Origin: Escherichia coli
Lineage (GTDB): Bacteria; Pseudomonadota; Gammaproteobacteria; Enterobacterales; Enterobacteriaceae
Length of the DNA: 64,000 nucleotides
Reading direction: 5' to 3' (one strand)
NCBI RefSeq assembly: GCF_051903065.1
Contig: NZ_CP178438.1
In this document: one piece after another, positions 57,931-59,154 of the stretch
Layout of the letters: every line of letters starts with the position of its first letter
Numbering within the stretch: position 1 is the first letter of the stretch
Notes under the pieces: model-generated
The model's database searches: none
Seen by the model: the letters and a program-made list of their open reading frames with translations, nothing else
What the model was told of the DNA's origin: nothing
Program-made: the position numbers and the translations under genes

Positions 57931-59154
57931 ATGTCAATTGACTTTACCCCAGGTATGATAAATACATATCACGGCGATATTTATAACCGCACAACAGATA
58001 CCGACAATGTTAAAACACCAGACACACCGATGTGGCCTTGTGATAATCGGGAAGAACAACAACCCATTAATTCCACATTCTCTGGAGAAGGATACAACCC
58101 TGAACAATATGATTTAGCGCGGCAACACCTCCCACAAATTTATGCGTGCCGCACGAACACCAAATATACAGATGCAGACTACTCAAAAGTTGTGGCTCAA
58201 CTTGTAAGTCTTATTACTAACATTGAATCGATAAGTTCGACACCACTTACGCGGCAGGCACAGGAAATACTTAATCAAATTAATAACATTAGATACGAAA
58301 AGAACAAAAGTGCTGAATGTCGAATCATTGTTGTCGCTAATCCTAAACCCGACAAGGCAATCATAACTAAAATTAGCGTAGAAGAGGGAATACCAGTAAG
58401 ATTCAGTGTCCAAACCATGTTTTCAGATACTAATTTTATTGCTGAACAACGAGCTGACTTACCGACTAATATAAAAGATATTCAAAGCCTGTATCAAAAA
58501 ATGACGAAGTTATATATTGAGCACAGTGAAAATAAAAACAGGATGAAAGTCTTTGCCGGAACCAACTTTATTGATTTCAATATGACAGGACAGAACCTGT
58601 CCGGGTTCGTTCTAACCTTGTCAAGGTTTTATTTCGAAGATCTACTTAATATAAATTTCACTGACGCAAATTTAGGTGACACTATTTTTTCACATAAAGA
58701 ACACCCTACCCCAAAATTATATAAAGACGAACAATATCTTGACAAACAAATCGAAGGTTTATTTTCAACATTATTAACCATTAATGACAACTTTTTACGA
58801 GCAAAAGCGGAAATTGCTTCGACAATAATTAAATTTTTAGAGGCCAGGATAACCAATCTTTCATACAACGACATATTAAAATATCAGCAAGAATTCCAAA
58901 AACAATGTTATAAGCAAGTTAAAGCCTTTACGACACTCTCCCGATACAATAAAATTCAAACATGGGCAGAAATGTCTGAATATCAATTCGAAGTATTTCA
59001 ATACGAGACGCTTAACCCAAAAAAAATGTCACGCACGCCTTATTTAAAGAGGCCACTTCCTGATGAAAAAGATATAAATTATGGGGTGGAAATAGAAATA
59101 CCGTCTGGTAAAAGAATTCGCTTATCAAATCATTATCAGAATATAATACCATAA
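57931..59154 (+). CDS. yhiS: YhiS, uncharacterised protein (intact here)
   Basis: 407-aa AT-rich ORF directly upstream of slp. Confidence 0.75.

Follow-up and report, generated by a model that had tools for sequence, protein, structure and literature searches.

We analysed yhiS, an uncharacterised gene of Escherichia coli, in a window of 64,000 nucleotides from the sequence NZ_CP178438.1 (unless another locus is named, coordinates refer to this whole stretch). The window carries yhiS as a single uninterrupted frame of 407 codons. Taking identity and evolution together, we are confident that this frame is the full-length state of a genuine protein-coding gene, which appears from database searches to be restricted to Escherichia and Shigella. 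Selection has preserved the frame of this gene among alleles that are very deeply diverged; the constraint is real but weak, and many lineages have lost the intact gene independently through insertion sequence (IS) insertion, deletion, homopolymer slippage and nonsense mutation. We give the explanation as a whole, a real orphan gene with a putative binding product, a probability of about 0.6. yhiS is catalogued but uncharacterised, its disruption by IS5 in K-12 is documented and intact copies are widespread; new here are a pentapeptide module in its product, the proof of coding constraint, an artefact of the Prokaryotic Genome Annotation Pipeline (PGAP), and local hypervariability with recurrent loss.

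Coding constraint on the intact frame

The gene and its candidate ribosome-binding site lie as follows:

57931–59154, plus strand: yhiS coding sequence in its full-length 407-codon form, ATG to TAA, encoding a protein of 47.3 kDa and pI 6.15
57921–57925, plus strand: Shine-Dalgarno-like AAGGA, 5 nt ahead of the yhiS ATG, read from the sequence

On its arsC side, the acid fitness island is bordered by an AT-rich tract that contains the frame, whose GC content is 0.354 (0.316 at third codon positions) against 0.516 for the whole window and 0.51–0.54 for arsB and arsC. On the 5' side of the frame stand arsR-arsB-arsC and on its 3' side slp (59401–59967) and dctR (60120–60650), followed by chuS and chuA on the opposite strand. 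The initial annotation had described an intact, uncharacterised 407-codon frame in a low-GC segment upstream of slp, and this description holds throughout: searches of NCBIfam and PADLOC-DB (both at E≤1) and of PHROGs gave no match to YhiS, and Pfam gave only a sub-threshold match to Pentapeptide. From the gene's own base composition, which gives a stop probability of 0.070 per codon, the probability of 407 open codons is 1.4e-13. The region has an observed open stretch of 411 codons, and 1000 shuffles of it yielded none longer than 164 codons.

Pairwise comparisons of six intact alleles gave a ratio of nonsynonymous to synonymous divergence (dN/dS) below 1 in 15 of 15 cases. Fourteen values fell between 0.36 and 0.52, and the near-identical K-12/L005 pair gave 0.15. 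The 407-codon alleles show no indels at up to 15% nucleotide divergence. Random placement of the 179 substitutions that separate the window allele from allele L009, with their spectrum kept, left only 0.01% of 20,000 neutral trials free of stops. An allele of 410 amino acids, with 62% protein identity, is still open and lies in the same arsRBC-yhiS-slp-dctR-chuS-chuA context. Variable sites number 88, 62 and 99 at first, second and third codon positions, and this mild third-position enrichment is consistent with weak constraint. Across alleles, YhiS is most conserved over its first 30 residues, the framework of the pentads described below, residues 276–300 and the C-terminal tail.

Comparison with the K-12 locus

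The MG1655 annotation gives yhiS (b3504) as a pseudogene in two pieces with IS5T/insH11 between them, which bears out the statement in the initial annotation that the K-12 gene is interrupted by an insertion sequence. The IS5 copy (L001 5037–6231) sits at a short target:

58672–58675, plus strand: TTAG, the K-12 IS5 insertion site, uninterrupted in the window (MG1655 annotation and alignment)

Once IS5 and one copy of the duplicated TTAG target are taken out, K-12 yhiS is 1224 nt or 407 codons long and collinear with the window frame, with 0 indels, 95.8% nucleotide identity and 92.4% amino acid identity. This alignment had been proposed as a check in the initial annotation, and it leaves the K-12 frame, as it stands, not intact. 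The gap-free match of 1224 against 1224 nt and the conserved placement of the gene, with the ars genes on one side and slp-dctR on the other (in K-12, too, between arsC and slp), assign the window gene to the YhiS orthologous group (b3504/P37635).

In the literature yhiS figures at the edge of the acid fitness island, and only as a pseudogene or a gene of unknown function. It is one of eleven IS5 sites in BW25113 (PMC11677980), and the K-12 gene, a pseudogene disrupted by an IS, had no chlorhexidine phenotype (PMC8170033). The IS5 copy in K-12 yhiS is reported to mediate spontaneous 14–16.4 kb deletions of the adjoining Gad acid fitness island, both while strains are being constructed and in laboratory evolution (10.1101/063271; 10.1101/2023.11.30.569415). 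That IS5 copy is absent where yhiS is uninterrupted, as in the window strain.

Recurrent loss among E. coli genomes

A yhiS match was found in 5417 of 5426 complete E. coli genomes, with at least 80% query coverage in 4329. The state of the frame was surveyed in 40 evenly spaced rows of this search: the gene was collinear in 27, carried an IS element (IS1, IS2, IS3 or IS5) in five and was largely deleted in eight. Twenty of the 27 collinear copies were scored from sequence; 11 read through all 407 codons and nine were broken. By this small sample, intact yhiS occurs in roughly 37% of complete E. coli genomes, that is, in thousands of strains. ST131-type (sequence type 131) genomes retain only the first ~380 nt of the gene after a 3' deletion, and arsR and arsB are also gone, with arsC kept. 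The initial annotation had suggested that the intact copy may be a better template for study. This is fair insofar as the gene is full length here and disrupted in K-12, whose clone and knockout collections hold only the disrupted gene, but intact copies are not special, being found in roughly one third of genomes, and a full-length template is available in many strains besides this one.

Every frameshift in the scored copies fell at a homopolymer A or T run, in four tracts. Two of these tracts are the sites of recurrent truncated forms:

58685–58690, plus strand: T6 run (T7 in K-12-type alleles), slip site for a recurrent 281-aa truncation elsewhere; in frame in the window
59019–59026, plus strand: A8 run, slip site for the 371-aa O157-type truncation; in frame in the window (DNA and allele comparison)

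At gene position 755, T7 has become T6 in five genomes, and L024, which carries a window-type allele, shows a separate 1-nt loss in the same tract. The remaining slips are at the A8 run at position 1089 in the O157-like L004, from A7 to A8 at position 966 in L010 and from A7 to A9 at position 367 in L016; L006 has a nonsense codon too, at position 44. Long-read errors in homopolymers could account for some of the singleton slips; the shared slips are backed by protein clusters of matching lengths (281 and 371 aa).

An artefactual frameshift label

Strain 23CRST027 (NZ_AP045789.1) carries a yhiS copy 100% identical to that in the window, which PGAP labels 'frameshifted' and ends at window position 59047. 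The 371-aa protein form (P0027; represented by WP_001303709.1 in an O157-like strain) matches it exactly through ...LNPKK and then reads CHARLI* (KKCHARLI*). It derives from a 1-nt loss in the A8 run, and the resulting out-of-frame stop falls exactly at window position 59047. We therefore reject the flag as an argument against an intact gene: it is a reference artefact, arising because the PGAP reference protein is the 371-aa form produced by the A-run slip. Mislabelled intact copies lie at L002 6332–7555 and at L007 1817–3040, L007 being the second such copy. The mislabelling probably affects many RefSeq E. coli genomes and constitutes an annotation trap, in which an intact 407-codon gene is called a pseudogene. 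The O157-type gene, in contrast to the full-length window copy, is cut to 371 aa by the slip.

A hypervariable mosaic tract

yhiS lies within a sharply bounded region of divergence:

57600–59288, no strand assigned: AT-rich hypervariable mosaic tract of roughly 1.7 kb, comprising the spacer ahead of yhiS, the gene itself and ~130 nt at the start of the yhiS-slp spacer

From about 59288 onward, divergence falls to 0–2 differences per 90 nt. Nucleotide identity in yhiS drops to 85% among complete genomes and to 77% in L011, whereas slp, 250 bp downstream, is 98.9–99.6% identical, and one Slp protein accession (WP_001057453.1) is common to every PGAP-annotated genome checked. Correspondingly, synonymous divergence (dS) reaches 0.31 in yhiS against 0.016–0.05 in slp. 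The divergent tract coincides with the AT-rich segment, and its non-coding parts are as divergent as synonymous sites.

At least three yhiS haplotype families are present, separated by a dS of about 0.3 and by protein differences of up to 38%, and in the protein alignment each segment occurs in about three discrete types, which are combined differently from allele to allele. One such mosaic, L007, equals L008 over 57601–58300 and from 59021, and equals the window allele over 58301–59020. Allele type does not track the flanks: K-12 and L009 are both without the chu island and have nearly identical slp genes, yet their yhiS copies differ with a dS of 0.28. The cause of a tract that is so old or evolves so fast may be balancing selection, introgression from unsampled lineages, or a mutational or recombinational peculiarity of AT-rich DNA. 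Local mosaic divergence, a kept frame and recurrent loss together make a population-genetic pattern, the only part of these results of some wider interest.

Distribution of YhiS

Searching 1.84 billion representative proteins with a HMMER profile recovered one full-length YhiS cluster and fragments of the same gene. A word-indexed search of 5.8 billion proteins gave 136 matches, and the source-given names among the 120 listed were all E. coli or Shigella. No match to YhiS was found in phages by tblastn. A plasmid or mobile origin was rejected, the three 'plasmid' matches being mislabelled chromosomes of 4.8–4.9 Mb. Scans of species-representative genomes with a peptide pattern and with a degenerate DNA pattern, the latter matching all alleles analysed except the B2 remnant, were both empty; they are a limited test for other species, and among the genomes without a match there is probably a representative of E. 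coli whose copy is degraded, likely the B2-type remnant.

Protein architecture and a pentapeptide module

YhiS is hydrophilic (maximum hydropathy 0.99), with no signal peptide and no transmembrane segment. Structure was modelled in two AlphaFold2 runs, one from 16 alleles and a later one from 39 YhiS sequences (the window and 38 alleles) plus nine pentapeptide fragments. Both models agree on disordered residues 1–60, on helices followed by a five-stranded sheet at ~80–200 and on a helical C-terminal half of low confidence. We did not rely on the fold beyond a rough secondary-structure layout of residues 80–250. Combined with the sequence, this gives the following parts (pLDDT, predicted local distance difference test):

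57931–58110, plus strand: residues 1–60, acidic N-terminus rich in S, T, N, P and Q; modelled as disordered (pLDDT < 30), with residues 1–30 well conserved across alleles
58168–58530, plus strand: residues about 80–200, predicted helices, then a five-stranded antiparallel sheet and a helix; the best-modelled part (pLDDT 55–81)
58498–58770, plus strand: residues 190–280, one complete pentapeptide-repeat module and the two 'LY..Y..K.[LI].G' linkers, one on either side of it
58546–58695, plus strand: residues 206–255, ten consecutive pentads with F, L or M at every centre (sequence register)
59011–59151, plus strand: residues 361–407, basic C-terminal tail, strongly conserved (YLKR.LP.EK.INYGVEI....RIRLS.H.QNIIP); missing in the 371-aa form

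Residues 190–280 are the only region that resembles other proteins; for residues about 80–200 no confident structural relative was found. The central residue is F, L or M in all ten pentads and is preceded by N or D in six, in keeping with the A(D/N)LXX pattern. Distant matches of the YhiS profile are all bona fide PF00805 proteins (library-wide E 1.5e-8 to 7e-4), covering mainly residues ~204–280, with one reaching 328, and pairwise BLASTP against pentapeptide proteins gave E values of 4e-8 and 4e-6. The linker after the YhiS repeats recurs in pentapeptide proteins as QLYSTxSYxDKDLxG, and a similar linker precedes the repeats. A profile search of the PDB gave E = 0.007 for Rfr and E = 3.2 for QnrB1. 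The initial annotation had seen no recognisable catalytic motif; indeed no enzyme family was recognised, but the ten-unit module at residues 206–255 had been missed.

YhiS shares with pentapeptide-repeat proteins (PF00805; Rfr32 2f3l/2g0y, MfpA, QnrB1, AlbG) its tandem pentads, the central F, L or M and the frequent N or D before it, and with long multi-module members an identical 'NFTDANL' motif and 'LY..Y..K.L.G' linkers. It differs in having one short module, ~2.5 coils, inside an otherwise unrelated protein of 407 aa. Membership of the Qnr/MfpA/AlbG group of DNA mimics was rejected, with no NCBIfam Qnr or MfpA match and ~2.5 coils where about 8 or more are needed.

On these features, YhiS would be a cytoplasmic protein of 47 kDa, soluble and bearing no catalytic signature, in which the ten pentads may form about 2.5 turns of beta-helix. 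It could act as a rigid interaction surface by binding a partner, and not by catalysis, because pentapeptide beta-helices serve as such surfaces in characterised proteins; the function might be conditionally dispensable and needed only in some niches. We propose this binding-scaffold mechanism tentatively, with less than even confidence.

Weighing the explanations

Several observations weigh against a functional gene with a binding product. The K-12 remnant, the sole subject of experiments on yhiS, had no chlorhexidine phenotype (PMC8170033). Roughly 60% of genomes are without an intact copy, so any function of YhiS is dispensable. The Pfam Pentapeptide model (PF00805) scored 11.6 bits against a gathering threshold of 20.2, and of the 15 among 16 YhiS alleles that matched it none passed the threshold (best E 0.037). 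Model quality is poor in both AlphaFold runs (mean pLDDT 50 and 48), and the beta-helix appears only in the model built from the pentapeptide-enriched alignment, which is partly circular. Structure prediction, another check proposed in the initial annotation, thus gave a rough layout of residues 80–250 and an unreliable fold elsewhere.

yhiS could be a functionless relic, decaying everywhere and by chance not yet hit in this strain, which we consider unlikely. The frequency of loss agrees with decay (only 11 of 20 collinear copies intact, with a further 5 of 40 genomes carrying an IS and 8 of 40 largely deleted), as do a dN/dS of 0.4–0.5, high for E. coli and set beside a value near 0 in the adjoining slp, the lack of homologues and of an annotated function, and the K-12 remnant without a phenotype. 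Neutral evolution, however, keeps 407 codons open over 179 substitutions in only 0.01% of simulations, and the total absence of indels across 15–23% nucleotide divergence is not expected of a relic; nor do a dN/dS below 1 in all 15 comparisons and the strong conservation of the N-terminal 30 residues, the pentad centres and the C-terminal tail fit it. A selected gene under weak constraint, lost repeatedly, remains our preferred explanation. Its polymorphism might instead mark a conflict-type gene (anti-phage, immunity or antigen-like), made polymorphic by diversifying or balancing selection and possibly switched via homopolymer runs. Extreme local divergence (dS up to 0.31, identity down to 77%) beside slp at 99%, alleles that are mosaics of about three haplotype families, and the placement of all frameshifts at four A or T tracts would suit such a gene. 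We nevertheless find it improbable: there is no PHROGs match, and membership of an anti-phage defence system was rejected with no PADLOC-DB match at E≤1; no region has a dN/dS above 1 (maximum 0.82); the divergence of the non-coding flanks, equal to that of synonymous sites, means that the signal is not protein-specific; the gene has a fixed chromosomal site with no presence/absence variation; and A-runs are expected in DNA of 35% GC, where some singleton slips may be long-read errors.

A further proposal, that the tract is a long-lived recombining core-genome polymorphism maintained by an antagonistic role of YhiS, as a secreted effector-like protein or a conflict component, seems to us similarly improbable; if true, the yhiS knock-outs in K-12, O157, ST131 and others would be adaptive losses, not neutral decay. 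A separate reading, in which YhiS is a substrate or effector of type III secretion (the locus of enterocyte effacement, LEE, or E. coli type III secretion system 2, ETT2) resembling PipB2 or EspX, would read its N-terminus as a secretion region, followed by an N-domain and pentapeptide repeats. We judge it highly unlikely: YhiS showed no sequence or profile relationship to the type III effectors compared (Salmonella PipB/PipB2 and SopA; E. coli EspX/NleL; K-12 YjbI) and is without a HECT-like domain, and membership of the SopA/EspX, PipB and PipB2 families (NF007264, NF011904, NF011744, NF011743) was rejected with no NCBIfam match at E≤1. As a positive control, K-12 YjbI scored 1033 bits to the SopA family model, and the PipB and PipB2 models were listed too. 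K-12 yjbI is itself a pseudogene (L012 10704–12284) with a 442-aa product after early stops, a degraded gene of the pentapeptide effector type.

Other features of the locus

Rfam, promoter and terminator scans found nothing specific to yhiS. Promoter-like sites in the yhiS region numbered 15 against 10.3 expected, and an antisense sigma-70-like site near consensus lies inside the gene at 58716–58745 on the minus strand (TTGTCA, 18 nt, TATAAT; 11 of 12 matches); it is probably a by-product of AT-richness. Downstream, a mechanical list of open reading frames lengthens slp to 243 aa with an ATG at 59236 (59236–59967), where annotated Slp begins at 59401 and has 188 aa. Because the added 5' stretch lies inside the hypervariable spacer, it probably does not encode protein.

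Upstream of yhiS, the block corresponding to positions 1–1240 of L006–L010 and to window 55169–57304 is polymorphic, with arsR-arsB-arsC in the window and K-12 and a divergently transcribed ArsR/SmtB-family regulator with a 333-aa permease in others. Just 3' of arsC, a pair of REP-like (repetitive extragenic palindromic) units of the BIME type (bacterial interspersed mosaic element) lies at about 57345–57455, unalignable in the divergent L011; a weak Rfam naRNA4 match at 57353–57385 falls within this pair. Between dinQ (54577–54660, minus strand) and arsR, the window has one copy only of an AgrA/AgrB-type antisense small RNA, at 54935–55016, 99% identical to K-12 agrA and 94% to agrB. Two copies are present in K-12, where the dinQ-arsR spacer is 231 nt longer.

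The chuS-chuA haem-uptake island (60711–63770) follows directly after dctR, where K-12 has yhiD, and the window strain is therefore chu-positive (non-A, non-B1). The closest complete genome, that of 23CRST027, is 100% identical over 1.7 kb, and identity to O157-like strains is 99.3%.
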